Assembly (NCBI GenBank): GCA_030427445.1
Contig: JAUIBQ010000004.1
Location: 1 to 60,712 of the forward strand
DNA length: 60,712 nucleotides
Source: a bacterium
Lineage (GTDB): Bacteria > Patescibacteriota > Saccharimonadia > Saccharimonadales > SZUA-47
Direction of reading: 5' to 3'
Shown: one piece after another, positions 27,344 through 60,712 of the stretch
How the letters are laid out: each line of letters opens with the position of its first letter
How positions within the stretch are numbered: position 1 is the stretch's first letter
The notes under the pieces: generated by a model
What the model saw: only the letters and a program-made list of their open reading frames with translations
What the model was told of the DNA's origin: nothing
The model's database searches: none
Position numbers and translations under genes: made by a program

Positions 27344-27409
27344 TGTGGAAAACTTTATGTAAAAGCGTAAGAAATATACTTGAAATATTGAACAAAATTA
27401 GTGTACACT
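27344..27409 (+). promoter_or_regulatory. Promoter of giant gene 1 with upstream DnaA-box consensus
   Basis: TGTGGAAAA (27344-27352), TTGAAA (27380), 18 nt, TACACT (27404). Confidence 0.6.
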
Positions 27410-27482
27410 AGGGTTGTATCAGAGTAAAAACTGATACAAAGGGCGCGGTTTCGAAGTTAGTCTCGCAACTCTTCGATTCAGC

Positions 27483-30400
27483 GTGTTGCCAACAAACAAC
27501 AAAAAGCAACACGTGAAATATTTAAAAAACAACAAACATAAAAACGTACTATTAAATATATGTACAGCACGGGATGGCAGAGCATCCCTTGCTGGCGTTA
27601 GAGGCCATATACAACGTGTATGGCCTCTTTTCTTTGGTCTAATTTTTCAGATCAGCCGTCGTTCAACCTCACGCGCCCGAGTGTTGAACGACGTTTGTTC
27701 TGAAAAAGTCGTCAACCGAACCCAGTCTTCAACCTCACGCGCCCGAGTGTTGAATGCTGGGTTTGGTTTGCGACGAGCAAAACTCAGTATTCTAGGTCAG
27801 ACCCAGTCTTCAACCTCACGCGCCCGAGTGTTGAATGCTGGGTTTGGCTTTGAATACGCACAACCATCATTGCAGTCAGGATTAACCTCACGCGCCCGAG
27901 TGTTAATCCTGGCTATAGTGATGATGTTGGTTGCCCCTATGGTTATGGCAGTTACTAACGTAGGTATTGCCTCCGCCGCTCCATCCGACACCCTTAACTT
28001 CCAGGGTCGACTCCTCGATGTAAGTGGGGGTCTTGTCTCAGACGGTTACTACAACATAGAGTTTAATCTCTACACTGCAGCAAGCGGTGGATCAAGCATT
28101 TGGACAGAAAGCAGAGAATATAACTCAGGCTCAGGATCATGTACTGGACCTATCAATGGCAATGACTGTCGTGTGAGAGTCTCTAATGGATACTTCTCAG
28201 TTTACCTAGGTGAGGTCACTGCACTACCAAACATAGACTACAGTCAGCAACTCTACCTCACCATGAACATTGACCAAAACGGTACAACAAGCGCAGGAGC
28301 AATTACATACGACGGAGAAATGAACCCTAGATTCAAACTCACTGCAGTACCATATGCTTTCCGGGCTGCTAATGTTGCAAGTGGAGATACAAATGCAGCA
28401 TCAACTGACTCAAGTGACGTAAGTATTACTACTGGTGATGCACTCGGTGCGACAAGTGACTCAGGTGATGTCACGATAGATTCTGGAACAGCAACAGGCA
28501 CTGCAGGTCAGGTACTACTTGGTACTACAAACGCATCAGGTGTCTTAATCGGTAACGCGGGCGCCACAACTACGATTCAAGGGAGTGTGTCGCTTACGGG
28601 TGCAGGCACAGCCCTCACGGTTACGAATGACGCACAGTTTAATGGGGATGTGACTATTGGCTCAGATACGAGCGATTCATTGACCGTAGAGGCTGACGCG
28701 ACGTTTAACGGCTCCCTCACAGTGAGTACCGGTGATGTATTCCAGAATGCAGGTGCGACACTATTTAGCGCGACTAGTATTTCAGATAGAGCCACTGGTG
28801 GCAACATAGGCACGGCAGCAGCTACTGTAGATATTGCTACGACATTCGATGTCAACCAGACGACAGCAGGTCAAACACTTACATTGCCAACTCCAACAAA
28901 TACGGCTTCTGGTCGAGTTGTTTATGTAAACAACGTAGGTTCTGAGAACTTCACGATGTACGGCGAGACGATTGAGACTGGTAGCAGTAGTACATTTATA
29001 TGGAATGGATCTAGTTGGACGACTTCAGTATCGTTCTCTAACACTGGTGTAGACACAGTAGGTGCGCTAGATGGAGTTGCTGCAGCTGCAAACGGTGCGA
29101 CGATTTCTGGTACAACTATTTATCTCCAGTCTGCATCAGCTACTGCTGCTGGATTAGTAAACACATCAGCTCAGACATTTGCTGGCACTAAGACGTTCAA
29201 TAACGGTATTGTATTAGCCGCGAATCAGACCCTCACTGTTACAGGTGGCACAACTGCCAACCGTCCAGGTTCACCAACGGCTGGTATGGTCTATTATGAC
29301 ACTGATACAAACACCCTTCTTACGTATAACGGTACTAAGTGGATCGCGGATCGTGGTGAATACATTATTGTTGCGGCCAATGACTCTACACAAGCTGAGA
29401 AAGACAGTGCTGACTACGTAGCCGATAACACCGATGACCATTTGACTATTAACTCTGCAATAGGTGCACTGAGTAGCGGCGGAGGTAAAGTGTTACTCTT
29501 ACCGGGTACGTTCACGGTAGACGGTTCAATAGAGATAGAAAGCAATGTGACGCTCGCTGGTTCTGGTCAGGAAGCTACGACTCTTATTGCTGAAGCAGGT
29601 GCTTTAGCTGCACAATACGACGTTATCGAAAATGCAAACCCAGGTTCAACTGATAACAACATAACGATCCGTGACCTAACAATCGATGGAAATAAAGATA
29701 ATGTAACTGGTAATGACGTAGAAGGTATCCTGTTTGACACAGTAGGTTCTGGCAGCGGCGCTACGTACGTACGAGGCTTCTTGATCGAGAACATCACAGT
29801 TACTGACACTGAAGGTAACGGTATAGATATCGATACATCCGCAAACGGTTCTATTAAAAACGTAACAGTAAAAGACTTTGGCGTTGCAAATGGTATCCGC
29901 TTGCTCGATTCTGACTACATTAGGGTAGAAGGTAGCGACATAATCGATGGCTTAGCCGACGGACTGTTTATAAGTGCTTCGGACAATAATATTGTGTACG
30001 GCAACTTTATCGATGACAATGGGAATAATGGTTTAGAACTAAATGGAGCAACTCGAGACAACGTTATAGATGGCAACAGGATTACAAATAGTGGTGATCA
30101 TGGTATTGAGCTTGCTGGTGTGGGAGCAAAACAATACAACATTATCAGTAACAACTATATAGGTAATAACACTGATCGAGGATTTACCTCCGTAAATTCA
30201 TATCACAACACTATAACTGGTAACCAATTCTATACAAATGACGCGTCAGGCGTTGATAGTCATATTAATCTTGGTGGATCAGGCGCTAATAACGTCATTA
30301 CTAATAACGTTATCCGTGAAAGCTCAAGTGACGGTTCGGTTTCTATTGCGATTGCGTCTGGCAACGCCACTACATATGTAGCAGATAACCTTATCGACAA

Positions 30401-33400
30401 TGTTGGAGCTGTAGCAGACTCTAGTACATCTACAATCTATGCGAACCAGATGGATGCGTCAGACAATCTTGTACTTCAAGCATCTGGTACGGCAGACGTA
30501 CTTATTAACTCAGACACAAGCATCACAGGAGCACTTGACGTGACTGGTGCAGCAACCTTCGACGGAAATGTCACAGTCGGCGACGCAGCTGGCGACACAC
30601 TCACCGTGAACGCTGGCTCTATCCAATTTGCTAATAACTTCACTAGTTGTACAGTCATTAACACTGATGCTTCAGGCAACTTAGGATGTGATACTAGTAC
30701 ATATTTGACATCAGCAACTGTCTCGTTGCAGGGTGCTTATGACGGTGGTAATACGGTCACTACAACTAATGCACGCGATATATTGTTCACTCTTGCAGAC
30801 ACTACGACCGATAGTGACTTTATCATTGATATAGCTAGTGGTTCTACAAGTGAATTTGCTATCAAAGGTGCGGGCACCAACTTCTTCACAGCTACCCAAA
30901 CAACATCTCAAGAAGGTCAAATAGCAATTAAGTCTAACAGTGACTATGCTTTTGCTATTACAAACTTCCCTAACCAAGAAGTCTTTACTGTAGACGCAAA
31001 CTATGCACAAACTTTAGTAAGTAATAATGCTAACACTGCAGGACGACCAGCACTATCATTTGCACAAGATACAGACACCGGAATATATCGCATAGGTGCT
31101 GATCAGATTGGCGTCTCGACAGGTGGTTCTTTGAGAGTATCAGTTACTGACGCAACGACGACCGTAACAAACGCTCTAACTGTCACTGGCCTCACCACCC
31201 TCAACGGTGGCCTCACTGTCGAAGCAGGTGATAACTTCACCTTTAACTCAGATGTTTTCACAGACTTCACTGGTGGAGGACTATACAACAACTCCGGAGT
31301 ACTTAGTGTCTCTAACACTGGCGCATCTGGCTTTTTCCAGAATGGTGGAAACTTATTTGGCACTACAGCTACCCTAGGAACTAATGACCTAAACCCACTA
31401 GTACTTAGAACTAACTCCACAACAGCATTAACCATTGATACTTCTCAGAACATTACTACCACAGGAAACTTAGACGTGGCTGGTCGCGGTGCGTTTGGTA
31501 ATACTGGTGGTATAGGGACTAACTTTAATTTACTCGGAATCTTGCAGGTTGATGCTGAGCTATCTGTGGAAGCTAGCATTACATCTGTTATAAACGATGC
31601 ATATCAAGCTGCATCGGCAAATATATTATCTGTCAACCCAGCATCAAACCCTGCATCTTCTGGAAATATTATAGGAGGATTTGATTACGCTGAGGTGAAT
31701 GCTGCCAACACTACAAATGTTAGTAACCTAAATCTTGTTGGAACCGCTGGATTCGCTGTTGCACAAGGTAGCGGTGACATAGGAAGTGTTTCAGGCGGTT
31801 CCTTCAGTACTACTAATCTCAGCACGGGTACAGTCGGAGTGCTCTCGGGCATAGAAGCAGTTGTTACAAGTGGTGGGAGTGTGTCGGAGGCCTATGGAGG
31901 TAATATCATCCTTGGCAATTCAGGCAGTGGGACAATCTCAAACGCCAGAGGACTGAGAATTGACGTATTTAACTCGGGCAGTAGTATAACAAATGCCGCG
32001 GGCATAGTTGTTGAGAGGGTTCAAGGCACTAATACTACCAACTTGCTACTAGGTACAGGCACAATCCCATCCGGCAACTACTCAATCTACAGTGCTTCAA
32101 CAGCAGCTAACTACTTCGCAGGAAACCTCACATTAAACCAAGCACTGTTAGTTAACGGCAACACTACAATCGGTAACGCGAATACCGACACCTTGACAAT
32201 AAACGCTGGTTCATCTGGAAGTGGCATTACATTTGGGGATAGCTCATTTGCAAACTGTACACTTACTACGGTTGCAGGCGTTCTAACGTGTGGTTCATCT
32301 GGCTCTGCTTCTGACTTACAGGGTGCTTACGTCGGTGGTAACACAATTGTGGCAACCAATGCCGAAGGCGACATTGATTTGACGGTATCTGAAGCAACGA
32401 ACTTTACTGTAGACATAACAGGTACTGGTAACTTCCAGGTGCAAGACGGGGGCACACCGGTATTTACAGTAGCTGACGGCGGGGCATCAACATTTGCTGG
32501 GACATTAGCCGTGAATGCAGGCACTATAACAAACAGCGGTGCTGCTCAGTTAATTAACTTTACTTTAGGTGATGACGCAGATCAGGATCAGGTGGTAGGT
32601 CTAGCTGTTCAGCCGACAAGTGTAAACGGTGGTGATTTCGACAATCTTGTAGCTATATATGCAGCGCCTATTACTGCCTATGCTAACACCTGGGAAGTTG
32701 CGTACGGAGTTGGAGCTGGGTACGATATCGACTTTATTGTTTCAGACTCAGACGCAGTCTTTGCAGTAAATGATGGTGGGGTGTACAACTTCAACTCATA
32801 TAATGGTGCAACATTTGATACGCTAGTCACAATTACTGATGTAGGTTCCGTTGGTAACGTCGGTATAACCGGCACATTGCAGGTTGATGGCCTCACCACC
32901 CTTAACGGTGGCCTCACTATCCAAGCGGGAGACACATTTAACTTCAACAGTGACGCGTTTAGTGACTTCACAGGGGGCGGTCTCTACAACAATGCCGGTG
33001 TATTAAGCGTCACGAACACTGGTGCAAATGGGTTCTTCCAAAATGGCGGGAACAGCTTCGGTGTAGCTACCACTATCGGCACTAATGATGCACAAGCCCT
33101 AGGTATAGAAACAGGTGGGACCACACGCTTCACAGTAGCAGCTGCAGCCTCGACCCTAACTGGTAACGGCGCTACAACAATATTTGGTGGAACTTCACTT
33201 TACTTAGGTACTACTGGGGCCAATTCACTAACATTGGCTACAAATGGTACTACGAGGTTTACAGTAGCTAATAATGCTTCAACCATAAGCGGAAACGGTG
33301 CGACAAGTCTTGTTGGTGGTACTACACTAACCCTCAACGCAGCAGCTACAAGTGCACTCAACTTAGGGACAACTCAAACAACTGGAATACTTACCATTGG

Positions 33401-36400
33401 AGGCACTGGTGCAGCAACAGGAGCTATCAACCTAGGTACAGGTACGGGAGACCAAACGATCAACCTGGCAACTGGAAGCGGGTCTGGCAATAAGACAGTT
33501 ACGCTTGGAGCAAATAACGGTTCTAGTTCTACGACAGTACGATCAGGTTCTGGTGGAATTTCTCTACAAGGTAATACATCTGTATCTGGTCAACTCACAA
33601 TCGGTCAGGCTGATACTACCGGTACACTGCTCGTTTTAGATACTAAAACAGATCTAGGTGATCCGTCTGGCGTAAATGGTGCCCTGTACTACAACTCTAA
33701 TATTGATAAGTTCCGATGCTATGAAAATGGTTCATGGGTTGATTGTATGGCTGTAGTTTCAAACGGGACAAACCTGTATGGAGGCACAGGTGCACTTAGC
33801 ACAAATACAACAGGGTACAGTAATGTGGCATTTGGACAGAATGCGTTAGGGGTAAGTACGACAGGTTGGCAAAATGTCGCGGTAGGTGTTGGATCACTTT
33901 TTTCATCAACAGGTAATGACAATATCGCAATTGGCTTTAATGCTGGAGATAACCTCACTTCTGGCAACGGCAACATAATTATTGGCTCTGATATAGATTT
34001 TGCCTCTGCAACTGGCTTTAATCAACTAAACATCGCAGGTCTCATAACAAGCTCAAACTACACATCAGGCGGGCAGTTTAATGGCACCCTATTAGTGACA
34101 GGTCTAACTACACTCAATGGTGGCCTCACTGTTGAAGCAGGCGACACATTCACATTTAACTCCGATGCATTCACAGACTTCACTGGCGGTGGGTTAGTAA
34201 ATACAGGCGGTGTTCTATCAGTTGATACAACATCTGCAGCTGGCTTCTTCCGTAATGGAGGAAATAGCTTCAGTGGTACTGCAACATTAGGCACAAACAA
34301 CGCTAACAGTTTAGTACTGGAAACTAACAATCAATCAGCGCTAACTATAGCTAATGGCGGTGCTATTACTCTCCAGAACGCATCTAACTCTACAAATGCG
34401 TTTCGTGTGAACACGTCAGGAGGGGCGTCACTACTTAACGTCGATACTACAAACTCACTCGTGACGGTAGCGACGCCAGTCTTCCAGACAGTGACAAACA
34501 CTAACTGTGGAGTGAACTGTACTATTACTCAAAGTAATGTAGACAACAATTCAGCAATCATTGTAAATGCTACAGCAGAAGAACTGGAGATCACTCTACC
34601 TGATCCTACTAATGCTACAGCTGGTCGTGTTGTGTATGTTACAGCAGCGAATGGTTCAAACGACTTCACATTGCTTGTAAATGGCGGTGGTCAAGGCAAC
34701 GAGATTGCGATGCGCGCTAATACTACAGCGACGATGATTTGGAATGGAAATGATTGGACAGCTGCTGGTGCATCTAGTTCTACAACTCTGCAGGCAGCAT
34801 ATGACAATACACTTACAAGTGCCGGTGGTGCAGAAATTGTACTAAGTGCCGCAGGAGGAAACGCAGACGGACTTACAGTTCGAAACAATGCTACTGCGCC
34901 TATTATTGGTGGTATATTTGAGGCTCAGACGTCTATAGGCTCTAACTTGTTCAGTGTGAACAACAATGCAACAGAATTTGCAACGAATGGTGGAGCAGAA
35001 ACCGACGGTGGTGGGGCAAGTACATTCCCAGTAAGTACTTGGGATACAACTACAGGCGGTACGGTCGATAGATACACTACAGCTGGCGACAACGTCGCTA
35101 CAGGACAGGCTTCTGTACGAGTTCAGACTACAGGTGTTAATCACGGCGCTCGAAATAGAATAAGCACCGCACTGACATCAGGTCTTACATACACCGTGTC
35201 ATTTGCTGTCAGAGCTACTTCAAGCTTCTCAACGTTAGATGTTCTTTACTCTCCTGATGGCTCTACTTCCGGCACGACTAACTGTGCAACTGGACAACGA
35301 GTAACTAGTGGCCAGTGGACTCGCATCACCTGTACGTTTGTAGCTGGTGGTAGTATCAACTCAAATAATTCAATATTGATAAGACAGTCAGATGGAACAT
35401 CAAGGACATTCTATATAGACAACTTGAGTATCAACGTGAACGCTTCGGCTTCGTTCGCGGCAGATGGTAGCGTAGATGTAGCACTTGGCAGTAATTGGAC
35501 TGCATTCGGTACGCTAGACTCACTTACAAGAGAGACAAGCGTTATCTATGACACAAGTGGAAGTGTTGCTGTTGATACTCCTAACGCTGCTAACAGGGGC
35601 GTACGAAACAACCTATCGATTACTCCAGATACAGATACTCAATACCTCGTCAGTTTCTATGCGAGAAGCACAAACACATTCAATGACATTCGGGTCAGAT
35701 ACTCACGTAACGGAGGTTCAAACTTCGTAACTTGTGAAGACTACAATACTCAGAGCATATCGACGACTGGCTTTACAAAAGTAACGTGTCTCTTCACGAC
35801 AGACGGTACGACTGCATCTAACCCCGACTTGATTATTGATCAACCAACGGGCTCTAACCGTATCTTCTACATCGATGCGCTCACTGTGACACTTAACAGC
35901 GATACATCTAACAATGTTCAGATTGGTGGTGGTAATAGAGGTGGTCCCGTTACACTGTTCACCCTCGACAGATCAGCTGGTGCTCCGATAGCAGACAACA
36001 ACGAAGCATATCTCGGCTCTATGTACTATGACACCACAACAGGACGCATCCAATGTTATGAAGCTGATGGATGGGGTGCATGTGGTGCTCCACCTGACAA
36101 CGTAGTTAACCTAAACCCTGAGTATGCTGGTTCTGTGCTTAACGGCTCTGGTGTGGGTACTATGACTGCAGACTTCTGTTCAAATGGTACTGACCTTACT
36201 GTGAACACCAGTTTCTGTGATACAGGTGAAGCGCGTAACTTCTACAACTGGACATCTCCTCAAGCTACAGAACAGACATATAGCATCTATGTGACGTATC
36301 AATTACCTGAAACCTTTAACGGCTTTAGTAGCGATGACACTGTTCAGCTTGTGGGTCGTGTCGACAATACATCTAATGCATCTGTAACTTACGAAATGTT

Positions 36401-36638: not shown

Positions 36639-36790
36639 CACATAACGTTGTACATAAATCTACACTCAAAGTAAGTTAAAATCCATAGATTAATCGAATA
36701 CTATTAGTGTTCTAAAACTACTGTTACATATGTTCTGGTTATGCTAAAATAAGCTATAGAATTATAGAGATAAACATTCTAAGGGCGTGG

Positions 36791-44503: not shown

Positions 44504-44525
44504 TGTGCGATAATGAGAGTGCAGT

Positions 44526-45344
44526 ATGAGTGATGATATAAAAAACAGGTTTAAATCAGTTCAGAGAAATGACGAAGAAACTACTGATGATATTTTCTCA
44601 ATTTGGAAAAAACAAGATGAAATGCAGAAAGAAGACAAAAAGCTCAATGAAGAGTTACTTGAAGCGAAAAAGAAAGCTAAGGAGCTGAAAAAGACGCTTC
44701 GAAAGCATCAGTATGGAAAGAGTAAAGAGGCAGTTAATACCGCTCTATATCGACGAAAAGTAGCTAACTTCATAAAAGATGTAAGCGAATTTATTAGCAG
44801 GCTTACTTCAAGATTGAAGATAGTGTCGAGGCGTCAAAGCGTGTATGCTTTGACCGCTATAATAGGTGTAGTTATGATTGGTTTTATTATTACTGCACAA
44901 GGTGGTAAAGAAGATTCTAGGGATACTCTAGGAGATAGCTCTTCTTCAGTAAATACTTCTGTAGAGCTGCCTCGTGAAACACCTTCAGATTTCGACTTAT
45001 TGTTGCCAGATGGGTCAGCCGACTCAGAGTATGAAATCGTACGAATTAGCCCCGAAGGAGCTGAGCCTTCTTATACATACCTTGATAAGTTCTCCTCAAA
45101 CAGCAATCTTTTTCGTGTAACTCAACAAAAAGTTCCTGAGGGGTTTGACCTTAATGCCACTGCTACAGGCTTTCAGGCTACTGACATTATCCAGTTAGAC
45201 GATACAAAAATTTATCATGGGTATTCAGAAGAAGGAAATATTCAATCACTTTTATTAGTTAAAGAAGATGTTTTGATCACTATACGAAGTAACGGCAAAT
45301 TCAGCGATGATCTGTGGGTCTCATATATTACTTCTCTACAATAG
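44526..45344 (+). CDS. Single-pass membrane protein with N-terminal coiled coil (272 aa)
   Basis: Charged helical N-terminus, TM VYALTAIIGVVMIGFIIT, external C-terminal domain. Confidence 0.8.
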   Translation: MSDDIKNRFKSVQRNDEETTDDIFSIWKKQDEMQKEDKKLNEELLEAKKKAKELKKTLRKHQYGKSKEAVNTALYRRKVANFIKDVSEFISRLTSRLKIVSRRQSVYALTAIIGVVMIGFIITAQGGKEDSRDTLGDSSSSVNTSVELPRETPSDFDLLLPDGSADSEYEIVRISPEGAEPSYTYLDKFSSNSNLFRVTQQKVPEGFDLNATATGFQATDIIQLDDTKIYHGYSEEGNIQSLLLVKEDVLITIRSNGKFSDDLWVSYITSLQ

Positions 45345-45428
45345 AATTTAACACTTAATAAAGTAAATTTTAGTTGTTATATTCACAACGAAAAATTACA
45401 TAATAAAGTCTACACAATATTGTTTGCT

Positions 45429-45492
45429 TGTGGATAAGTATCCATAATAATAATTAAGTTTTATTGATTTTTGCATACAAAATTTATACAAT
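45429..45492 (+). promoter_or_regulatory. Promoter of giant gene 3 with perfect DnaA box
   Basis: TGTGGATAA (45429-45437), TTGATT (45464), 17 nt, TACAAT (45487). Confidence 0.65.
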
Positions 45493-45547
45493 TACGGCAG
45501 ATCTAAAAAAATAAAAAAGATCAAAACAAAAAAACAAAAGGCTACAA

Positions 45548-51500: not shown

Positions 51501-54500
51501 GTACCGCTAGTTCAGTAAGTTCATTCACGGTTGACGCAGATGGCAGGTTGACTGCTGCGAGCAATACTCCTATAGCAATAGCAGCTACGCAAATTACTTC
51601 TGGTCAACTTAACGATGCTCGATTAAGTGCAAATGTGGCATTACTAGATCGTTCCGGTCAAACATTCACCGGAGCAAATACTTTTAGTGCTGCCGGAACT
51701 GCATTAACTGTAACGAATAATGTTAGTATCGGTGGATCACTTAGTCTTGCAGGTTCAGTAGTAAGGAGCTGGAGTGCATCTGATACAGATGTGGATAGTC
51801 TTGTCACTGGCACAACTTCTTCAGGTACACTTGTTGAATCACCTGAAAATGCACACTTTACAATCGGATTACGTGAAAACGGAGCTGATGATTCATTCAG
51901 TATTATTAGCGGTGATGGCAACTATAGTTCAGACACAACATACGATAAAGTGGTGTTGCGAGTAAATGCGAATGGCGCAACTACTTTAGGCGGCAACACA
52001 ACTATCCAGGGAGATTTAACAGCTACTGGAGCTAACCTTATACTCGGTACAACAGATCTTAGTGAGGCAGATCTCGACGCGCTTGACGACGGAGTCATTA
52101 ATTTAAATACTGAAACTACTGGAACACTTTCAGTAGGGAATGGTGGTACAGGTACAACAACACTGGCTTCTGGTGTGCTGTTCGGTAACGGCACTAGTGC
52201 GATAACATCAACAGGAACCCTTAGTAATGGACAGCTTCTAATTGGTGATGGTTCCGGCGCTCCAAGCCTTGCTACATTAACACAAGGATCTGGTGTAACT
52301 ATAACGAATGGTGCAGGATCGATCTCGATTGCGTCTACATTAGGCACAAGCATAGACAGCAGTGAGATAACTAATGGATCAATCGCAGAAGTAGATCTTA
52401 GTATTTCAAACTCTCAGGCATCTGGATGGGTTCTAACATCTGATGGCTCTGGTGGCTTTACATGGGTAGACCCGGGAACCGTCGGTTCGACTCTAGATGA
52501 GGCAACTGTAGAGAGTTATATCTTCGACGGCGACAATTCAGGTACTCTTAGCTCTGGCACTCTTGCTCTTGACTCATTAAGCTACACTGGAGACTTAAAC
52601 GATGCTCAGATTAGCAATTCGCTAACAATCACAGCTGGGAGTGTGAATGGTTCGGTGTTGACTGCAGGCAGTGTGGCGAATGGGTCATTAGCCAATAGCT
52701 CGATTACTGTTACGACTGGGAATGGTTTAACTGGTGGAGGCGGTGTCTCACTTGGTGGGTCACTTGGCCTATCGTTATCAGCACTTACTGCTAACTGGGA
52801 TCAAACTGGGGCCTACGATATCGTGCTTAACAATGCTGCAAGTGAGTTGCAGATCTTGGAGAGCGTAGGGGGCACATATTATGGTACGTTTGACGTGGGC
52901 AACCTAAGTAGTAACCAGACATTTACTTTCTTGAATGGTGGCACAGTTGTTACTAGCAGCAATACATCCACGTACGCTACAACAGGAGTAACTGCTGGGA
53001 GTGGTCTTACTGGTGGTGGCACTACAGGGGTTCTTGGAGTAAACGTTGGTGCTGGTACCGGTATTACTGTTAATGCTGATGATATTGAAGTCGACTATGG
53101 CAATACAGCCGGTACAGCTGTTGAAGGTAATACTTCTATATCTGTTACGGCGGGAACAGGTCTTTCTGGGGGAGGAAGTATTACCCTAGGATCAGGTGGT
53201 TCAGTCTCATTACAGAGTACGCTTGGTACTAATATAGATTCAAGTGAAATAGTTAACGGAACAATTCAAGAAGTTGACTTAGAAGTTACGAACGCAGGTA
53301 CAGACAATTACTTATTAAGCTACGATTCTGCGACAGGCGGATTTACCTGGGTAGACCCAACTGGTGTTGGAGTAAACGAAGCAACAGTCGAAGCCTACAT
53401 CTTCGATGGCGACAACTCAGGGACACTTAGTTCTGGTACACTAGCCCTCAACTCATTAAGCTACACAGGTAGCTTAGGAGTAAGTAATGGTGGCACTGGA
53501 CTAACAAGTGCTGGTGCAGCAGGTGGTGTGTATTATTCTACGGGAACAGGTTTTGCTAATAGCGGAGCAGGCACAAGTGGAAATTGTCTCGTAAGCAATG
53601 GCGCAGGAGCTCCTAGTTGGGGTGCATGTGGTGGTGGTGCCGGCTTAACCACTCTGCAGGTTGCCTACGATAATGGTAGTAATTTAACAACAACAAACAA
53701 TCGCGATATCGAGTTTGTACTTGCAGACACGACGACCGACTCTTCATTCATCATTAATTTACAGGGCACAGGCAACTTATTTGACGTTCAAGATGCTGGC
53801 ACTAGCAAGCTGACTGTTGACGGTGCTGGTAATGTGGGAATTAATGATGCTTCACCAGGCTATAATCTTGATGTAAACGGTACATTTAGAGTCGTTGGAG
53901 CATCTTATTTTAACGGGCATATTGATTTAGGTAATGCGACTACTGACAATATTAGTTTTATCGGTCAAGTTGATAGTGACATTTTGCCCGCTACTAACGA
54001 TACGTATTCATTAGGCTCTTCTACACTTCGGTGGCAAGATCTATATCTTGGGCCAGCGAGCTTACACATTGGGGCCGATGGCGATGAAGGTGTATTGAGT
54101 TACAATACGGGAACTAACCAGTTCAACTTTGATAAAACAGTTAGAATTGATGCTGGTAGCGACACAAATGGAGGCTTACTTGTTAATGGTACTTCACAGC
54201 CGAATATTATGATTGCAAATGCTGGAACGATTAGAGCTCGTCTCGCGGTGGCCACTGTTGGCGGGGGCTACTCAAGCGATTCGAGTGTAAATGATGTCAT
54301 ATTGCGCTCTGAAGGAACGCGATTATTGTTCAATACTAACGGTGGCGGTGCATCTAGCTTAGCGGTAAACGGAGCGGACGTAGGAATCGGTACGCAAAAC
54401 CCTAATGCACGACTGCAAGTAAACGTTAATAATTCCGGTGTATCAGGAGACTTGAACACTACTGGAGTTGTTTCAGACTTAGACTCTAGAGATGGAGTTA

Positions 54501-56722
54501 TAGAGATCACAAATGATGTAGATAGTATCTTTGCTGGAATCCGTTTTGCTGCATTCAACGCCGAAGCAGCTATCGGTGCATCGTATGATTCCACAAATAA
54601 CTCATCACTAATATTTGGTACCGAAAGCTCAGCTAGTGCGGGAAGCATAACAGAGCGCATGCGTATCCAGTCTTCAGGCGATGTAGGTATCGGCACTGCA
54701 TCTCCTACCAACGCGCTGCATGTGTATAGGACTGGTTTTAGTCCTACGTCAAATGACGACACAGCGTTTCGGGTTGAAGGTAGCTGGGGTGGAGGAATCA
54801 CATTTAGTGAAAACGCCAATCGAGCGATGATTTGGTCGCCTGCTGGTAATTCTCTAGCATTTGGTACTGGTTGTAGCGCTAGTGGCTGCTCAAGTCAGAG
54901 CGGTAATCTGCAAATAGAATCAGGAGGAGATATTGTTGCCGGCAGCACTTCGAACGGTACTACAAATGTCAGACAGTTCAAGTTGCAGAGTGAAGGGTTT
55001 GCAGTGGTTAACCTAAAAGGCGATACTGAAAATTCAGCTGGTGAGCCAGGTGGAGCAGGTATTAAGCTGTCTGTAGATAATAATACCGATTCGAGTTATA
55101 ACGGGCTGTTCTCAATGATAAATTCTGCAGGTACAGATGGAGTGGGCGGCACGTATACTGGTACAGCAAGTAACAGCTTGCTACTCGGAACAGTCAATAA
55201 CTATCCACTTCAGTTCGGTGTGAATTCTAGTGTTGCACTAACACTCGAGAACTCAGGGACTCTCCAGTTCCCAAACAATACACAAGCTAAGATTAATCTT
55301 TACAGTACTACGTATGGACTAGGCGTAAGTGGCAACACATTGCAAGTTTATTCAGATAGGTATGTCGACTTCAACTCACTTGGTTATAACGGAACGACTC
55401 GAGTAGTATTTGACCTCGACAACGGTAACGCGACCTTTAACGGTACACTGCGTGCAGATAACGGCTTCGTTGCAGATGGCAATACTGTCATTGATAACGG
55501 CGGTGGCTGGCACCGCGCTCATGGTGACACAGGGTTTTATATCCAAGACTATACAGCAGGTATTCGAGCACTTGATGTACGTGTTCTTGATACCTACGAG
55601 AACAACGATTTTGATGTTAATGGTGGTGATCTCTATGTTCGAAACAGCGGTACATCTGTCGCAACGAACGGTAGTAACGGTGACTATACACGAATTCATC
55701 ATAACGGAACTAGTGGTTATATCGATGCGACCGGTGCTATAGTTTTAAGATCAAACGGAGGATCGGGAGGATTTACTGCTACCCTTGCAACAAACGGTAA
55801 TTTCACTGTCGGTTCCGGGTCACTGTTTGCTGATAACTTCGTGCCTACTGCAACAGGTTTCCCATATGTCGGAGCTTCAGCAGCGACGCAGAGCGCAGGA
55901 TCGGCATGCCGTTCAGGTAGTACAGGGCTTGGTTATGCGATTGGACGATGTTCATCTCTTCAGCAATATAAAGACTATACGACAGATATACCTTACGGGT
56001 TAGACACTCTTAGAGACTTGCGTCCTGTTAAGTATAAGTGGAACATCGATAGCATGGAGTGGGATATTGGATTTATCGCGGAAGAAGTTAATGCAGTAAA
56101 TCCAATCTTTAATGAGTATGCAGATGGTGAGCTTTCTGGTGTTAAGTACAGTCACTTAACTGCTTTGATTACTAAAGCCGTTCAGCAACTTGATGTTCAG
56201 GTGCAATCACACGACACACGTCTCTCTGCGCTAGAATCTTCCACTACAAACTTAACAAAGAAAAACATCACTGTTACAAATCAAACTACTACTGGTAAGT
56301 TATCTGTTACTGGCACTGCAACACTAACTAATCTCAAAGTAACAGGCGCTACTGAGGTTGCAGACCTTAAAGTAAACGGGAAGATTATCTCTGCAGGAAG
56401 TACCCCAACAGCAGTGTTGGGAGTGTCAACAACAGGAAATGGCTCGACATATTCAATTAGTGGCAACGATACAGCAGGAAGTGTAGAGATTACTACTGGT
56501 ACCGACACGCCTGCTAACCCACTTGCTTCTGGAGTGCAGGCATCGATTACATTTACCGAAGCATACAGTTCAGCACCGAGGGTAACGCTAACCCCAACAA
56601 GTGAAGCTGCTGCAGAGATTGGATATTACATTACTAAAACAACGTCTGGATTTAAGATACGATTTACTCAACAACCTCAGGCGAATACAACGTATAGCTT
56701 CGATTACCAGACCATCCAATAG
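45548..56722 (+). CDS. Giant exported tail-fibre-like protein (3724 aa) with beta-helix and peptidase S74 chaperone
   Basis: Signal peptide ending AEA; TLNFQGRLLD domain; beta-helix (~46870-48080); AGTGLSGGG and GGTG fibre repeats; SSLQQYK...LRPVKYKW...GFIAEEV...Y..L plus coiled coil. Confidence 0.9.
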   Translation: MHYSGRDARKAFKVKKKALLENHSSGNAFFIAFKDLGSTLRIKWILFACICLVVPFSVLPSSLTGQIAEAAPADTLNFQGRLLDSSGGLTSDGFYDIEFNLYDNASGGSSLWTETWNTGTSQVRIANGYFSVYLGTHTSFPSLDWTDDKFLTMNVEGDGEMNPRFRLTAVPYAFAAQQATELVASDSGFTTNVTVDTPTQNNSITLPDESGEVCLTSGNCAGVGGVGDILDGGQTGAISIGTTNDTTLTLLQNNNAALTVNSSQLLQFNAYSCSTFANGGTLTTDASGNVICADDDGGGGGSGVTTIGTIDGGTLSSNGASISGTTLYLQAASTLYPGLVTTGSQTFAGSKTFNSPAVFQDLTISAGESLQINSEWFGDLTGNGLTNSGSALTVLVQANKGLEVDSNGISLIDCADGQILQYATGSSSWACADTAGTGSDEIITVAAVDSTATQKAAADYVADGTSDETEINNALTEAYNSGVGGEVILLGGTFTVDGSISIPNNTTLSGEGSGTVIELDNLDSDINLITNTDTSGGTGVVVRDLTLDGRSDLNTAGNQFAILFSGMGSVSADRAGGLIENVSIVDFSPAGGFFYGGIALNGSDNNVISGNTLEGNGFGVYVGGSSKNKITDNYISGGNLGIYAQLTSNDNVIADNTISEHSLHGIHFDSSGTGTAITGNTIENNDQFGVYLENGFYYASIVGNTITSNDYGGIYLDIAHGSTIAGNTFDGNAGAVSTYAATDNTIVGNTITNSSIGGVYLEQSDTNIVSDNIFTNNAGDNIYLESDSNNNTISNNIITDSAASGFAIEINGATNDNNYLSNNTYSGTGAAGINDSGTNTIYAGQVDTSGNYDIQPTGTVELLANTNLTGDFDVTGTTSFDGAVTIGDAVGDTLTVNAGSIQFANNFVSCTAINSDASGNLGCDTNTYLTAGTISLQGSYDGGNTILADNAGGDIDFTVSEATSFTVDITGTGSFQVQDSGVAVFTIADGGAVTATQLVTLNGGLTVEAGDTFTFNNDAFTDLTGTGLQINSGSLETTLGTTIETSEITDANVTNSKLANSQLAVNTGSGLAGGGNISLGGSRTLSLGDLSSDWTQAGGYDIILDNAGSELRIVEASGGIYYGEFDVTDLNADRLYTFPDASGEVSVLGQIIENGELQNSNVTITAGTGLSGGGLVALGGSVSLTSTLGSSIDGTEIDNGTIEAIDFEVTAAPTDNYVLSYDSATGGFTWVDPGAVGTQLTEAEVEDYIFDADNGVKVLSSGQLALNSLTYTGQLENANISDTLTIGSSSTVDDGALSTNVSLLGSSIALGSETTGNYVQSISTGNGIQGGVSGVGSTPALSLSDLTANWNQTAAFDLVLDNTDSQLRILDDAGTYYGEFNVTGIGSDQVYNFGTGGVILSSGNIASYATTGVTAGAGLVNGGTTGTITLDVGAGNGLTVNANDIEVDYGSSANTAVEGNTTITISAGTGLSGGGLLTLGAGGTVTLNSNLGDTIDSSEIVNGTIQGADLESTNSATDTYVLTYDSATDGFTYVSQAAVGSAGGSGVTSLNSLTGALSINGNSQISVAPSGTDIDLSIATGSIGATQLGSTAVTASSYGSASQVATFTVDGDGRLTAAGNTSISIAATQVTSGTLSVSRGGTGVGSHTSGGILLGNGTSAIQNTGVLTNGQLLIGDGSGAPTVATLSSGSGINITNGSGSITIASTLGTAVDGSEIVNGSIEAVDIESTNVAGAGTDNYLLSYDNATGGFTYVDGGSVGTTLTEAQVEAYIFDGDNSGILSSGTLALNSLSYTGSLGVSNGGTGLTSAGAAGGVYYSTGTAFANSGVGTSGQCLLSSGAGAPTWGNCGGSGAGAVTLQVAYDQGNTITTTNARNIAYTLANTATDSDFVVNIASGSSSEVAFQFNGSSLLRIDSGGIDLIDVDVADFSGATVTFDAGEILETEIAQNSLDDSEIEDDSLTSSSLAANSVDSSELSSTTVGAGSYGTASSVSSFTVDADGRLTAASNTPIAIAATQITSGQLNDARLSANVALLDRSGQTFTGANTFSAAGTALTVTNNVSIGGSLSLAGSVVRSWSASDTDVDSLVTGTTSSGTLVESPENAHFTIGLRENGADDSFSIISGDGNYSSDTTYDKVVLRVNANGATTLGGNTTIQGDLTATGANLILGTTDLSEADLDALDDGVINLNTETTGTLSVGNGGTGTTTLASGVLFGNGTSAITSTGTLSNGQLLIGDGSGAPSLATLTQGSGVTITNGAGSISIASTLGTSIDSSEITNGSIAEVDLSISNSQASGWVLTSDGSGGFTWVDPGTVGSTLDEATVESYIFDGDNSGTLSSGTLALDSLSYTGDLNDAQISNSLTITAGSVNGSVLTAGSVANGSLANSSITVTTGNGLTGGGGVSLGGSLGLSLSALTANWDQTGAYDIVLNNAASELQILESVGGTYYGTFDVGNLSSNQTFTFLNGGTVVTSSNTSTYATTGVTAGSGLTGGGTTGVLGVNVGAGTGITVNADDIEVDYGNTAGTAVEGNTSISVTAGTGLSGGGSITLGSGGSVSLQSTLGTNIDSSEIVNGTIQEVDLEVTNAGTDNYLLSYDSATGGFTWVDPTGVGVNEATVEAYIFDGDNSGTLSSGTLALNSLSYTGSLGVSNGGTGLTSAGAAGGVYYSTGTGFANSGAGTSGNCLVSNGAGAPSWGACGGGAGLTTLQVAYDNGSNLTTTNNRDIEFVLADTTTDSSFIINLQGTGNLFDVQDAGTSKLTVDGAGNVGINDASPGYNLDVNGTFRVVGASYFNGHIDLGNATTDNISFIGQVDSDILPATNDTYSLGSSTLRWQDLYLGPASLHIGADGDEGVLSYNTGTNQFNFDKTVRIDAGSDTNGGLLVNGTSQPNIMIANAGTIRARLAVATVGGGYSSDSSVNDVILRSEGTRLLFNTNGGGASSLAVNGADVGIGTQNPNARLQVNVNNSGVSGDLNTTGVVSDLDSRDGVIEITNDVDSIFAGIRFAAFNAEAAIGASYDSTNNSSLIFGTESSASAGSITERMRIQSSGDVGIGTASPTNALHVYRTGFSPTSNDDTAFRVEGSWGGGITFSENANRAMIWSPAGNSLAFGTGCSASGCSSQSGNLQIESGGDIVAGSTSNGTTNVRQFKLQSEGFAVVNLKGDTENSAGEPGGAGIKLSVDNNTDSSYNGLFSMINSAGTDGVGGTYTGTASNSLLLGTVNNYPLQFGVNSSVALTLENSGTLQFPNNTQAKINLYSTTYGLGVSGNTLQVYSDRYVDFNSLGYNGTTRVVFDLDNGNATFNGTLRADNGFVADGNTVIDNGGGWHRAHGDTGFYIQDYTAGIRALDVRVLDTYENNDFDVNGGDLYVRNSGTSVATNGSNGDYTRIHHNGTSGYIDATGAIVLRSNGGSGGFTATLATNGNFTVGSGSLFADNFVPTATGFPYVGASAATQSAGSACRSGSTGLGYAIGRCSSLQQYKDYTTDIPYGLDTLRDLRPVKYKWNIDSMEWDIGFIAEEVNAVNPIFNEYADGELSGVKYSHLTALITKAVQQLDVQVQSHDTRLSALESSTTNLTKKNITVTNQTTTGKLSVTGTATLTNLKVTGATEVADLKVNGKIISAGSTPTAVLGVSTTGNGSTYSISGNDTAGSVEITTGTDTPANPLASGVQASITFTEAYSSAPRVTLTPTSEAAAEIGYYITKTTSGFKIRFTQQPQANTTYSFDYQTIQ
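45593..45640 (+). terminator. Terminator-like hairpin inside the 5' part of gene 3
   Basis: GCATTACTAGAG-AATCATAG-CTCTGGTAATGC-T7. Confidence 0.75.
50845..51008 (+). repeat. 164-bp intragenic repeat, copy 1
   Basis: 161/164 identical to 53386-53549. Confidence 0.9.
53386..53549 (+). repeat. 164-bp intragenic repeat, copy 2
   Basis: 161/164 identical to 50845-51008. Confidence 0.9.
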
Positions 56723-56819
56723 TCTAGTGGTGTCATGTACAGAAAGAGACTAGATGACTAACTTACGGCACCAACTTTAGTGGTAAATGAGGGATCCAAA
56801 AAGCAAGATAGGTTAAGAG

Positions 56820-58007: not shown

Positions 58008-58131
58008 GGTTTCATTATAACACTTATGTATAAAAATGTAAAGGGGGGAGTAAACTGTATATCCTTTTAATAGTAGTATCATACTGCTAGCAATGAAATA
58101 CTAAATTATACTATGGCTGTCTTTCGGTGAA

Positions 58132-58195
58132 TGTGGAAAAATTAAAGATTTCACAGTAGCGAAATATTGCTTTTTACAACAGATGTCGTTACAGT
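58132..58195 (+). promoter_or_regulatory. Promoter of giant gene 4 with DnaA-box consensus
   Basis: TGTGGAAAA (58132-58140), TTGCTT (58167), 17 nt, TACAGT (58190). Confidence 0.6.
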
Positions 58196-58317
58196 GTTAG
58201 GTAGATCTGACTGACAAACAAAAAACGAAAAACAAACAGATCACAAGAACCAACTGAGAGGCAGGGTGAAACCTGCTACTTTTGGTAAAAACACAAAACT
58301 AAAACCAAAGGCAAAAA

Positions 58318-60712
58318 TTGCTGTCAACGCTCCACAATAAGCAAAGGCATGCTGTATGGCAAAAGAGGACATACGTCTACTTACTTTTGCCAATTTTTAT
58401 TTTGGTTTCAGTTTTTGCAGGTTTGGCAATCAGTCAGCAATCAGCTTCAGCCGCCACGTCTAGCACGTTGAACTTCCAAGGAAGGCTACTCGATATCGAC
58501 GGAGGGCTTGTAAGTGACGGGTCGTACAATATCCAGTTCAAGATTTACGACTCAGCAAGCTCAGGTCAAAGTGCGGCTGGTGTTTGTTCGCTCGATTCAA
58601 GCACGGATGATTGTTGGTGGATTGAAAACAGAACTGTCACTGTACGAAACGGTTATTTCTCGGTGTATTTGGCAGATGTGGCAAACGGTGGAACTGCGTT
58701 TACGGCAGGTATCCCGTGGGATCAAGAGCTTTGGCTAACAATGAACGTGAACAGTGATGGCGAGATGTCTCCAAGATTTAAGCTCACCGCAGTACCGTAT
58801 GCATTTCGTGCTGGTGCTCTCGTCGATGCTAGTGGCGCTGAAAAGACAGCTGATGACTTTGCTCAGCTCGCTCCAGTATCAGTACAAGCAGTCAATGCTG
58901 CAAACGCTGCACTTCGCTTGAACCAAACGGGAACAGGAAACTTGCTACAGCTTCAAGGCGATGGTTCAGACGTGTTTGTCGTCGACAAGTCTGGTAATAC
59001 GACAATCGGCGGTGGTTTGACTCTTGGTAGCTCGACATCAACGACGGCCGGAACCATACGCTGGACGGGCACTGACTTCGAAGGGTTTAACGGTTCAAGC
59101 TGGGATTCATTGACCAGTGGAGGAGGTGGTGGGGGCGGTGGTTTGTCAACGCCGGCTGCAGCGACGTTCTACGATGGCACAGGTGGTGCAACGGTGGTCT
59201 CTGGTTCTTTTTCGACGATTAACATCGATTCGACACTTAGCAACTCCGAACCTGGAGTAATAACACTTTCAGGAGATGAAGTGACTATTGGAGAGGACGG
59301 TTACTACGAAGTCAGTTACGATGTGACCGCTCGACTGAGCTCAGGTACTCGATCAGGGTTTAACGCAAAGCTACAGCTCGACTCTGGCGGAGGATACGTC
59401 GACGTGTCTGGTTCTGAAGGGTATCACTATGGACGAATCACGAGTGAAACCCAAGGCACATCGTCAGCGTCAGTCGTCTTAAATCTCACAGCTGGTGATA
59501 AAGTTCGTATTCAGGCAAGCGGAACGTCCCAATCGTTCACTACCATTAGCAATGGTAGTCGATTGTCCGTCGTACGACTTGCTGCGGGAGGCGCAAGCAG
59601 CGGAGACTCGTTCGTGAATAACGGCAACACATTCAACTCACTCGCCATACTTGGTACCACAGATACCTACGGTCTTCAACTTATAACTGATGGCAATCCC
59701 GTCCTTGATATCACTGCAACTGGTGACTCTACCTTCACAGGAGCTCTCGATGTAGACGAGCTACTGACTGCTAACAATGGACTCACACTTACTTCTGGTG
59801 ACCTAGATCTAAGTGGAGGAGATATTCTTAACGCAGGAAGTATCACTGCTACTTCATTCGCTGGTGATGGCTCAGGGTTAACAGCTCTTAATGCTGGTCA
59901 AATAACCACAGGCACACTAGATGATCTCAGGCTATCGTCAAATGTTGCGCTGTTGGATACGGCGCAGACTTATAGTGCACTTCAGAACTTTAGTACTGCT
60001 CTACGCGTCGGCAATACCGCAGACACAACAGCCGGTAATATACGTTGGACCGGAGCTGACCTCGAAGTATATGATGGCACTGATTGGGTCAGCCTTACGA
60101 GCGGAGGGTCGGTTGATCCGCCGGGTGATTACATTAGCGTGACTACAACGAGTAACTCTAATGCGGCTGCTGGGCCGTATGATGCTTTTGAGTCAGGAAA
60201 CTATGGTTCATATACAAGCACAACAAATGCCTCAAATGGAATTACTTATACGCCTGCAAATGGTAGGTTCACTATTGCAGAAGATGGTACATATAATATA
60301 GCGAGCACAATGCAGGTAGAGACAAGTAGCAACGCTTTGGTTAACTTTATTGTTCGAGTTAATGGTGTGAGTGTTTATACGCACGATACGTTTATACATA
60401 CAGCTGTAGACCCTGCCGAGCGAAGCATATCACTATTGCAAGATCTTACGGCTGGTGATTACGTTGAGTTCCTTGTACAGGGCCCTTCGGGTAATGTTAC
60501 TGTTCACGGGGGCACAACTGCGACGCTTGTTCCGGTGTCATCTGCTGGTGGTCTTGGCGGTGGGGGCGGTGGCGGCACCGCGTTTGAACAAGGTGGCAAC
60601 ACATTCAACTCACTCGCCATACTTGGTACCACAGATACCTACGGTCTTCAACTTATAACTGATGGCAATCCCGTCCTTGATATCACTGCAACTGGTGACT
60701 CTACCTTCACAG
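58318..60712 (+). CDS. Giant exported protein 4, paralogue of genes 1 and 3 (partial; absent from the ORF track)
   Basis: Manual translation from TTG 58318 (AAAGG upstream): MLSTLHNKQRHAVWQKRTYVYLLLPIFILVSVFAGLAISQQSASA-ATSSTLNFQGRLLD...PRFKLTAVPYAF; two C1q/BclA-like domains (~59160-59580, ~60130-60540); runs off window. Confidence 0.9.
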   Translation, partial: MLSTLHNKQRHAVWQKRTYVYLLLPIFILVSVFAGLAISQQSASAATSSTLNFQGRLLDIDGGLVSDGSYNIQFKIYDSASSGQSAAGVCSLDSSTDDCWWIENRTVTVRNGYFSVYLADVANGGTAFTAGIPWDQELWLTMNVNSDGEMSPRFKLTAVPYAFRAGALVDASGAEKTADDFAQLAPVSVQAVNAANAALRLNQTGTGNLLQLQGDGSDVFVVDKSGNTTIGGGLTLGSSTSTTAGTIRWTGTDFEGFNGSSWDSLTSGGGGGGGGLSTPAAATFYDGTGGATVVSGSFSTINIDSTLSNSEPGVITLSGDEVTIGEDGYYEVSYDVTARLSSGTRSGFNAKLQLDSGGGYVDVSGSEGYHYGRITSETQGTSSASVVLNLTAGDKVRIQASGTSQSFTTISNGSRLSVVRLAAGGASSGDSFVNNGNTFNSLAILGTTDTYGLQLITDGNPVLDITATGDSTFTGALDVDELLTANNGLTLTSGDLDLSGGDILNAGSITATSFAGDGSGLTALNAGQITTGTLDDLRLSSNVALLDTAQTYSALQNFSTALRVGNTADTTAGNIRWTGADLEVYDGTDWVSLTSGGSVDPPGDYISVTTTSNSNAAAGPYDAFESGNYGSYTSTTNASNGITYTPANGRFTIAEDGTYNIASTMQVETSSNALVNFIVRVNGVSVYTHDTFIHTAVDPAERSISLLQDLTAGDYVEFLVQGPSGNVTVHGGTTATLVPVSSAGGLGGGGGGGTAFEQGGNTFNSLAILGTTDTYGLQLITDGNPVLDITATGDSTFT
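59623..59740 (+). repeat. Perfect 118-bp repeat, copy 1
   Basis: Identical to 60595-60712. Confidence 0.92.
60595..60712 (+). repeat. Perfect 118-bp repeat, copy 2 (cut by window end)
   Basis: Identical to 59623-59740. Confidence 0.92.

Follow-up and report, generated by a model that had tools for sequence, protein, structure and literature searches.

Terminator-shaped hairpins in the early codons of giant fibre-like genes: a candidate ribosome-gated checkpoint in a Rho-less Saccharimonadales bacterium

How might a bacterium that apparently lacks Rho avoid transcribing genes of 9-11 kb that no ribosome is translating? The question is raised by the window analysed here, a 60,712-nt stretch of DNA (contig JAUIBQ010000004.1 of assembly GCA_030427445.1) from a Saccharimonadales bacterium (SZUA-47) whose genome is 966 kb in size and 97% complete. 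After rplU, the window holds four giant open reading frames (ORFs), three of which, genes 1, 3 and 4, encode paralogous fibre-like proteins and carry a terminator-shaped hairpin inside the frame, shortly after the start codon. These three are the cell's largest genes and together make up ~3% of its genome. To our knowledge, almost nothing is known about gene control in bacteria belonging to the candidate phyla radiation (CPR).

27513..36638, + strand: gene 1, coding for a giant fibre-like protein; GTG 27513 is the probable start
45548..56722, + strand: gene 3, fibre-like protein of 3724 aa with a beta-helix and a C-terminal S74 chaperone
58318..60711, + strand: gene 4, incomplete at the contig end, with TTG 58318 as probable start

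The three proteins share an N-terminal domain of ~115 aa (50-56% identity), which is present in only three copies in the genome, in 26 of the 31 genomes of the family and in 204 of the 401 genomes of the order; in gene 1, a leader region of ~155 residues precedes the mature TLNFQG domain. Judged by sequence, the products resemble host-recognition fibres.

A leader plan in three sequence classes

The leaders of genes 1, 3 and 4 are laid out alike: a DnaA-type box and a promoter are followed by a folded, A/C-rich leader and then, 75-116 nt past the start codon and within the first 40 codons, by an in-frame hairpin with a U-tract. A first-pass annotation of this DNA had listed the hairpins, T-runs and A/C-rich tracts and had described the giant ORFs as open through each hairpin, all of which proved accurate for the three genes. 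It had also proposed a shared leader, and this holds for the plan but not for the sequence, since the leaders form three separately conserved classes, A (gene 1), B (gene 3) and C (gene 4). All three are strongly folded (z = -8.2, -6.9 and -3.8 for genes 1, 3 and 4, respectively), with none of 200 shuffles of each doing as well. Frames remain open through hairpins of unrelated sequence, and the frame is always kept from start to domain, over 97-214 codons in the 18 class-A leaders that reach the domain and over 70-80 codons in class B. Among the remaining homologues of the order, a long hairpin ahead of T-rich codons is frequent, less consistently so than in classes A-C.

The energy of the hairpin with its U-tract was compared with a null in which the protein was kept and synonymous codons were redrawn in 2000 trials. 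Recoding matched the observed energy in 27, 2 and 20 of the 2000 trials for genes 1, 3 and 4, respectively. Among 54 homologues (66 loci minus two window duplicates and ten without an assignable start, fetched as the best-scoring part of the family and order matches), 34 reached p <= 0.05 and 21 reached p <= 0.01, compared to 51 of 851 genes of the genome at p <= 0.05; leaving out five loci from genomes flagged as unpublished (L014, L016, L039, L047 and L076) gives 33 of 49. N-terminally hydrophobic genes of the genome reached p <= 0.05 at about twice the background rate (23/240 versus 28/611 for the others). Separately, the word ACC(C/T)CTG or CAGGGGT was seen just after the -35 element and in the signal-peptide codons of many homologues (e.g. 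L029, L059, L068, L056 and L073).

Class A was collected with a pattern search in which P3 was the search pattern, so that the invariance of P3 is by construction, and with a filter blind to the linker and the loops described below. From 261 pattern matches, 42 passed the filter, 25 of these were distinct and 23 were kept, L092 and L132 having been dropped by eye as chance matches with short closed frames; pattern matches in public collections were mostly chance. The gene-1 leader comprises the following elements:

27380..27409, + strand: predicted promoter of gene 1, TTGAAA-18-TACACT; TACACT and TTG at the same spacing in 23/23 class-A leaders
27414..27439, + strand: P1, first hairpin, A-rich loop, arms TTGTATCAG (27414-22) and CTGATACAA (27431-39)
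27441..27447, + strand: single-stranded linker GGGCGCG, complementary to the repeat loops; GGGCGC in 23/23
27450..27476, + strand: P2 hairpin with CTCGCA loop; 4/9 pairs changed on both sides
27482..27513, + strand: P3 hairpin with A/C-rich loop; its last base is the first of the start codon
27565..27594, + strand: P5 hairpin (helix 6) between start and terminator; 4/11 pairs changed on both sides
27600..27635, + strand: T1, in-frame terminator-shaped hairpin followed by TTTTCTTT, U-tract at +115

All 23 class-A leaders have P1, linker, P2 and P3 in this order, the start codon being at the foot of P3, and all have the P5 hairpin. In the class-A helices, 97.4% of cells are paired (94.6% in P1, helix 1, where one pair changed on both sides), compared to 31-44% in slid controls, and 11 of 38 pairs changed on both sides, with 0 of 500 shuffles doing as well; much of this covariation separates two clades. 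The foot pair of P3 covaries with the start codon, being T-A with ATG in 15 leaders and C-G with GTG in eight, and the most likely start of gene 1 is GTG 27513, not 27483. P5 is a candidate pause hairpin. A dedicated T1 of unrelated sequence, with its U-tract (TTTT) at +115 to +139, is present in 15 of the 23 leaders, and the U-run is mostly unpaired in 13 of the 22 that have TTTT. Of the 31 family genomes, 17 have a single copy of the element, which outside the family was found in one genome only: a model search of 150 genomes gave three weak matches, one of them real, and a pattern search of 401 genomes, judged from the matches listed, added no further genome. Another weak match of the model (L336, G121:C11), 5' of an infC-like frame, is a leader with many hairpins, a CTCGCA loop and a terminator. 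By its sequence it is probably something else; loops of CTCGCA are seen repeatedly, in several hairpins of Saccharibacteria.

Class B consists of gene 3 and six orthologous loci, with these elements in gene 3:

45464..45492, + strand: promoter of gene 3, predicted by consensus match only, TTGATT-17-TACAAT
45500..45547, + strand: first hairpin (GATCT 45500 / AGATC 45518) and A/C-rich tract, AAGG before ATG
45558..45573, + strand: small hairpin CGGG-AAGGGACG-CCCG in codons 4-9; GGG/CCC in 7/7 class-B leaders
45592..45637, + strand: terminator-shaped 19-bp hairpin followed by T7, U-tract at +88

The start at ATG 45548, favoured from the outset for want of alternatives, is borne out by an ATG aligned there in all seven leaders; no in-frame ATG, GTG or TTG lies between it and GTG 45719. 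The stems of the seven loci are unrelated, and their U-tracts stand at +83 to +96. This T-run is not a matter of signal-peptide codon bias, because the hairpin and U-tract lie ~15-20 codons ahead of the hydrophobic core. In 732 kb of coding DNA, 34 terminator-like sites lie within ORFs (free energy, dG, <= -12), and that of gene 3 is the strongest; the list missed gene 1, for whose ORF a later ATG had been taken as the start, and gene 4, which the contig end cuts. The small hairpin is a candidate pause or protein site. The GATCT/AGATC arms, previously noted in genes 3 and 4, are indeed present in both, but only the gene-4 class keeps them without variation; in the six orthologues of gene 3, the first hairpins are others.

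Class C is represented by gene 4:

58167..58195, + strand: predicted promoter of gene 4, TTGCTT-17-TACAGT
58204..58309, + strand: hairpins of the 5' untranslated region (UTR), GATCTG 58204 / CAGATC 58237 around an A/C loop and two more after it
58339..58352, + strand: nucleotide-invariant element AAGCAAAGGCATGC in codons 8-12; almost no synonymous change in 12 aligned leaders
58357..58403, + strand: weaker terminator-shaped hairpin followed by ATTTTTATTTT, U-tract at +75; the T-run opens the hydrophobic core

AAGCAAAGGCA is found at 13 loci, 12 of them in frame and 11 with dG <= -12.7. All 10 leaders inspected have TTGA-17-TA(C/A)A(C/G)T in the corresponding position, 6 of 17 consensus pairs changed on both sides, and one locus (L027) is broken and has no hairpin. 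TTG or GTG occupies the start position of gene 4 in 8 of 12 aligned leaders, and ATG follows a few codons later in the other four. GGCATGC contains an out-of-frame ATG; the idea of a -1 frameshift from there was dropped, the in-frame TTG, GTG or ATG starts being conserved upstream. The invariant element AAGCAAAGGCATGC is largely unpaired, and similar words stand at a similar place in class A (GCAAGGGATGG) and class B (GGAAGGGACGC); a contact with a protein or with the anti-Shine-Dalgarno sequence is possible. The conserved words AAGGGA/AAAGGC are likewise candidates for pairing with the anti-Shine-Dalgarno sequence.

Upstream of each promoter lies a 9-mer that we take, from the established consensus, to be a DnaA-type box:

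27344..27352, + strand: DnaA-type box TGTGGAAAA, gene 1, 60 nt before the -10 start
45429..45437, + strand: DnaA-type box TGTGGATAA, gene 3, 58 nt before the -10 start
58132..58140, + strand: DnaA-type box TGTGGAAAA, gene 4, 58 nt before the -10 start

These are the only exact DnaA-type matches in the window, and dnaA itself (contig C29) is preceded by three of the same 9-mers. A box in the same orientation is found within 900 nt of the domain at 56 of 65 fibre loci (the two window loci included; 51 of 60 without the unpublished genomes) and in the opposite orientation at two; among genes of the genome, 17 of 826 have a box within 400 nt of the ATG, a search window that differs from the 900 nt used for fibre loci. 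Single boxes elsewhere in the genome (C4:20622, C14:15661 and C39:23962) precede genes that, by their N-termini, are presumably mraZ, ftsH and thrS. The box likely sets the promoter activity of the fibre genes.

Repeat hairpins and a complementary linker in gene 1

Beyond T1, the frame of gene 1 continues through four hairpins of 25-30 bp with the common loop ACGCGCCC, complementary to the linker (GGGCGCR) in the 5'-UTR. Like the DnaA-type boxes, these hairpins were absent from the first-pass annotation.

27643..27708, + strand: repeat hairpin R1, loop ACGCGCCC at 27671-27678, -33.7 kcal/mol
27709..27777, + strand: repeat hairpin R2, loop at 27737-27744, -38.1 kcal/mol
27787..27857, + strand: repeat hairpin R3, loop at 27818-27825, -39.5 kcal/mol
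27861..27933, + strand: repeat hairpin R4, loop at 27890-27897, -35.3 kcal/mol, overlapping the hydrophobic signal core

In each repeat, an 8-nt loop (AYGCGCCC) sits on an upper stem of 3 bp, followed by a bulge of 1 nt and then a long lower stem. With up to two mismatches allowed, the genome contains four copies of the repeat, all in gene 1. The 23 class-A leaders hold 76 loops in total (1-6 per leader), 69 of which are closed in the local fold, on stems mostly of 23-37 bp; many of the repeats are followed by U-rich tracts. The gene-1 leader as a whole is folded nearly end to end over 550 nt (-238 kcal/mol). The upper stem covaries (n = 74: CTC/GAG 48, TCC/GGA 13, ACC/GGT 3, CAC/GTG 2 and others). 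In the stems of the 74 hairpins, G-U pairs outnumber A-C by 26 to 4, an excess that points to the sense RNA, and the sense fold is the stronger one in 54 of 73. In DNA contigs from four sequencing runs, no joint skipping a repeat was found, and two of the runs cover the repeats without differences.

The 6-mers present in at least 22 of the 23 leaders are four in the UTR, two of which are fixed by the search pattern, and two in the coding region, and only GGGCGC/GCGCCC form a complementary pair; we estimate the chance of such a pair at ~0.2% for uniform words and at a few percent for words made of G and C only. The seventh linker-loop pair is G:C in eight leaders, A:U in 11 and a mismatched A:C in four, which amounts to approximately two events on the leader tree, the domain tree being too unresolved to polarise the change. 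In L335, the class-A leader from outside the family, both words are kept and the flanking C-G has become A-U. The predicted duplex spans 7 bp (~-17 kcal/mol), and the predicted pairing is thus backed by invariance more than by covariation.

No Rfam family exceeded its threshold in the window or at six homologue loci, and the gene-1 leader, searched at E <= 5, gave only sub-threshold hairpin matches. An identity of the repeats with attC sites or repetitive extragenic palindromic (REP) elements was rejected on account of arms that covary away from attC ends, the confinement to one gene and the sense-strand G-U bias. AGGGA loops had also brought CsrA to mind, a candidate rejected since CsrA was not found in the 97% complete genome.

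A word resembling the class-A loop, (T)ACGCGC(G), is found in 18 of the 52 homologues outside class A (L019, L021, L045, L056, L060, L073, L077, L078 and others), where it falls within codons of the signal-peptide c-region, 11-63 nt ahead of the mature domain; it mostly encodes Tyr-Thr-Arg with the same codons, is present twice in some loci and is occasionally in another frame. The exact loop word ATGCGCCCG was seen in the early codons of one non-class-A fibre leader (L041, G004:C1).

Explanations weighed

For none of the three terminators was a competing upstream RNA fold found, and removing the terminator costs virtually the same with real as with shuffled upstream RNA (18.6/18.6, 24.2/24.2 and 13.0/13.2 kcal/mol for genes 1, 3 and 4, respectively). 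Riboswitch or T-box logic is therefore out, and a terminator-antiterminator leader was rejected for lack of a mutually exclusive antiterminator fold. The first-pass annotation had interpreted the hairpins as translation-coupled attenuation or as processive antitermination of the RfaH/LoaP/UpxY type. The former fits the anatomy and can be inferred from it, whereas the latter lacks both actor and target, because exactly one NusG was found in 28 of 31 family genomes and two in none (E <= 0.1), Rho was found in 0 of 31 (two unpublished genomes included in both counts), and terminator-like sites are few in the gene bodies (one in gene 1, one in gene 3, none in the available part of gene 4 and four in gene 2). 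The proposed search for NusG paralogues returned a single NusG in this genome, and tblastn with that NusG as query gave no second copy.

With a competing RNA fold out and a NusG paralogue unsupported, the ribosome remains as the candidate gate. The explanation we favour, at roughly an even chance of being right, is a ribosome-gated, pyrBI-like checkpoint inside the structural gene, acting in place of Rho polarity. The translated hairpins with their U-tracts would serve as intrinsic terminators in the fibre genes, and the full long message would be made only if a ribosome loads quickly and trails the polymerase across the hairpins. In E. coli, the ribosome reaches the polymerase only after ~100-200 nt (PMC4824070; like the other papers named here, cited from the available part of its text). 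The U-tracts at +75 to +116 lie in this race zone, so that read-through would depend on the speed of initiation. The pyrL terminator is suppressed by the advancing ribosome, and pyrBI needs a pause to couple the two machines (PMC5021804, PMC4824070); the small conserved element between start and terminator in each class may likewise pause the polymerase for ribosome loading. Failed or slow initiation would stop transcription after ~140-220 nt, and the non-stop product would be cleared by transfer-messenger RNA (tmRNA), which is present in the genome together with NusA and RNase III. The result would be a gene-specific polarity checkpoint on the costliest transcripts of a Rho-less cell, downstream of a DnaA-type box. 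Only 7 of 45 predicted terminators stand within 12 nt of the stop codon (median 24), by crude gene and terminator calls that are an indirect proxy of coupling; such distances may speak against uncoupled transcription, which in B. subtilis shows a stop-to-stem spacing of a few nucleotides (PMC7858274).

In gene 1, the likeliest role of the pairing between linker and repeat loops would be to tune this gate, either by holding the start region closed until the first ribosome melts the array or by delaying the folding of the repeat hairpins. A bolder proposal, which we put forward only tentatively, is that the gene-1 leader represents a new class of cis-regulatory RNA spanning UTR and coding sequence: the linker would dock onto a variable-length array (2-6) of translated hairpins, the first ribosome passage would switch transcription and translation of a giant host-attachment fibre, and copy number would be the tuning dial; together with the in-frame terminators, this may be how Rho-less CPR bacteria police their largest genes.

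Several observations weigh against the ribosome-gated checkpoint. E. coli terminators in the first 100 nt are barely suppressed by translation unless there is a coupling pause (PMC4824070), which is why a pause must be assumed. Of the 23 class-A leaders, seven have their first TTTT within a repeat hairpin, in its lower stem, and one (L118) is without an early U-tract; L335 keeps hairpins and loops with no U-tract whatever. The class-B T-run can pair with an upstream A-run, and that of class C doubles as the start of the hydrophobic core (it codes FFIL). As many as 20 of the 54 homologues fail the 150-nt recoding test, six of them class-A leaders with a first site beyond the tested window, and the homologues are kin rather than independent cases. 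The gene and terminator calls behind the in-ORF and stop-to-stem counts are crude.

Some of the same observations suit an alternative that we consider unlikely, namely that the hairpins act post-transcriptionally, by repressing or pacing translation or by protecting from or opening to RNase III, with the U-runs incidental and the linker-loop pairing closing over the start codon. L335 has the structure without U-tracts, the gene-1 leader is folded almost throughout with long stems in a cell that has RNase III, and P3 carries the start codon at its foot, the two covarying. SRP54 and FtsY gave no family match in this 97% complete genome, which exports 3000-aa proteins, so that the timing of export may need other control. 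Yet U-tracts directly follow unrelated stems in classes A and B, outside the hydrophobic core, and the position of the hairpins, ahead of the signal core or on it, is too early for a ribosome pause with the signal exposed.

Quite unlikely, in our judgement, is a 5'-UTR that works as an EAR- or put-like cis RNA antiterminator, its linker capturing nascent loops and blocking termination independently of the ribosome. The sole complementary pair among the invariant 6-mers, the G:C and A:U versions of the seventh pair, the altered flank in L335, the stability of the duplex and the U-rich tracts after many repeats speak for this reading. Against this, the seventh pair changed only about twice on the leader tree and is mismatched in 4 of 23 leaders, the best terminator, T1, lacks the complementary loop, no such complement was seen in classes B and C, and a single linker could not hold several loops simultaneously.

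Decidedly unlikely are constitutively leaky terminators, which would hold output at a fixed low level and free a short leader RNA (~215 nt with GGGCGCG in gene 1) that could pair in trans with loops of full-length messages. The first 100-125 nt are where E. coli terminators work regardless of translation (PMC4824070), and several loop copies would suit a trans partner. Nothing would be gained, however, from the in-frame position, which makes non-stop mRNA, and such loss looks wasteful behind strong conserved promoters.

A dedicated NusG paralogue loading at the leader for processive antitermination is very unlikely and largely refuted by the single NusG, the lack of a Rho to counter and the few internal terminator-like sites, even though long surface-protein genes are typical targets of such factors (PMC7819879) and the invariant 14-nt element of class C is a conceivable loading site; an unrelated RNA-binding antiterminator could still play this part. 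Chance or signal-peptide codon bias, with A-rich lysine codons facing T-rich hydrophobic codons, has practically negligible probability, because the recoding null, covariation and class-wide conservation refute it for genes 1 and 3, the twofold excess among N-terminally hydrophobic genes and the FFIL codons of class C notwithstanding.

Neighbouring genes and known systems

Gene 2 (36791-44503) encodes a 2570-aa secreted kelch-repeat protein with a glycine-rich stretch of 58% GC near 38000-39000; it has its own promoter-like site (36723-36750) and no leader terminator, and neither the shared N-terminal domain nor the leader plan was found in it (hairpin test p = 0.5). A gene for a 272-aa membrane-anchored protein follows at 44526-45344, and C-termini similar to that of its product lie directly 5' of class-B and other fibre genes in relatives (L010, L018, L029 and L041). 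On the minus strand of contig C5 (34672-31532), a 1047-codon open frame at the contig end has repeats in common with gene 4, whose C-terminal part it probably represents; no overlapping sequence joining C5 to the window contig was found.

If the ribosome-gated checkpoint is real, signal-peptide codons reveal a way for a minimal cell lacking Rho to spare itself 9-11 kb of transcription without translation; the defined nucleotides make transcription-translation coupling in CPR bacteria directly testable, and the linker-loop array is an RNA architecture, possibly a new module, open to testing by compensatory mutations. A literature survey on structured RNA, terminators, Rho and NusG, premature termination and giant adhesins in CPR bacteria and Saccharibacteria, with most subscription journals outside its scope, found no such description in the texts available. 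A preprint on the Pam pilus (PMC13278184) deals, in its available part, with proteins different from these fibres.

In-frame palindromic repeats within coding sequence recall the Rickettsia palindromic elements and REP elements, which differ from the four copies in one gene described here, with arms that diverge with compensation, an invariant loop and a sense-strand G-U bias. The proteins themselves are reminiscent of Bdellovibrio MAT fibres, with a domain of ~130 aa after the signal peptide, an apparently mosaic body and, in gene 3, an S74 chaperone (PMC10769870). This likeness comes from sequence: the MAT fibre N-domain model (NF053851) scores 19.7, 30.4 and 25.0 bits for genes 1, 3 and 4, against a cut-off of 60 and over only half of the model, PF13884 (S74) exceeds its cut-off in gene 3 only, and no relative of the N-terminal domain was found in the PDB.

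The put RNA of phage HK022 is a conserved cis-acting structure ahead of terminators, and the gene-1 leader has conserved, covarying structure upstream of its terminators. The EAR element of B. subtilis eps offers the same likeness, preceding long surface-related transcription with terminators downstream (PMC7858274); here, in contrast, there is no Rfam match, the structure enters the ORF and repeated loops are complementary to the leader. Long surface-protein genes, conserved leader elements and weak Shine-Dalgarno signals are shared with the targets of RfaH/ops, LoaP and UpxY (PMC7819879), from which the present system differs by its single NusG, the missing Rho and the few internal terminators.

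Closest is pyrBI, with an intrinsic terminator in a translated frame (pyrL), no RNA antiterminator, read-through with a trailing ribosome and a need for an upstream pause (PMC5021804, PMC4824070). Unlike in pyrBI, the terminator lies in the structural gene's own signal-peptide region rather than in a separate short leader ORF, no nucleotide-sensing pause was identified, the host is without Rho, and three sequence classes have the same layout. The leader elements of the fibre genes are real and conserved, and they probably embody a new variant of ribosome-gated attenuation.

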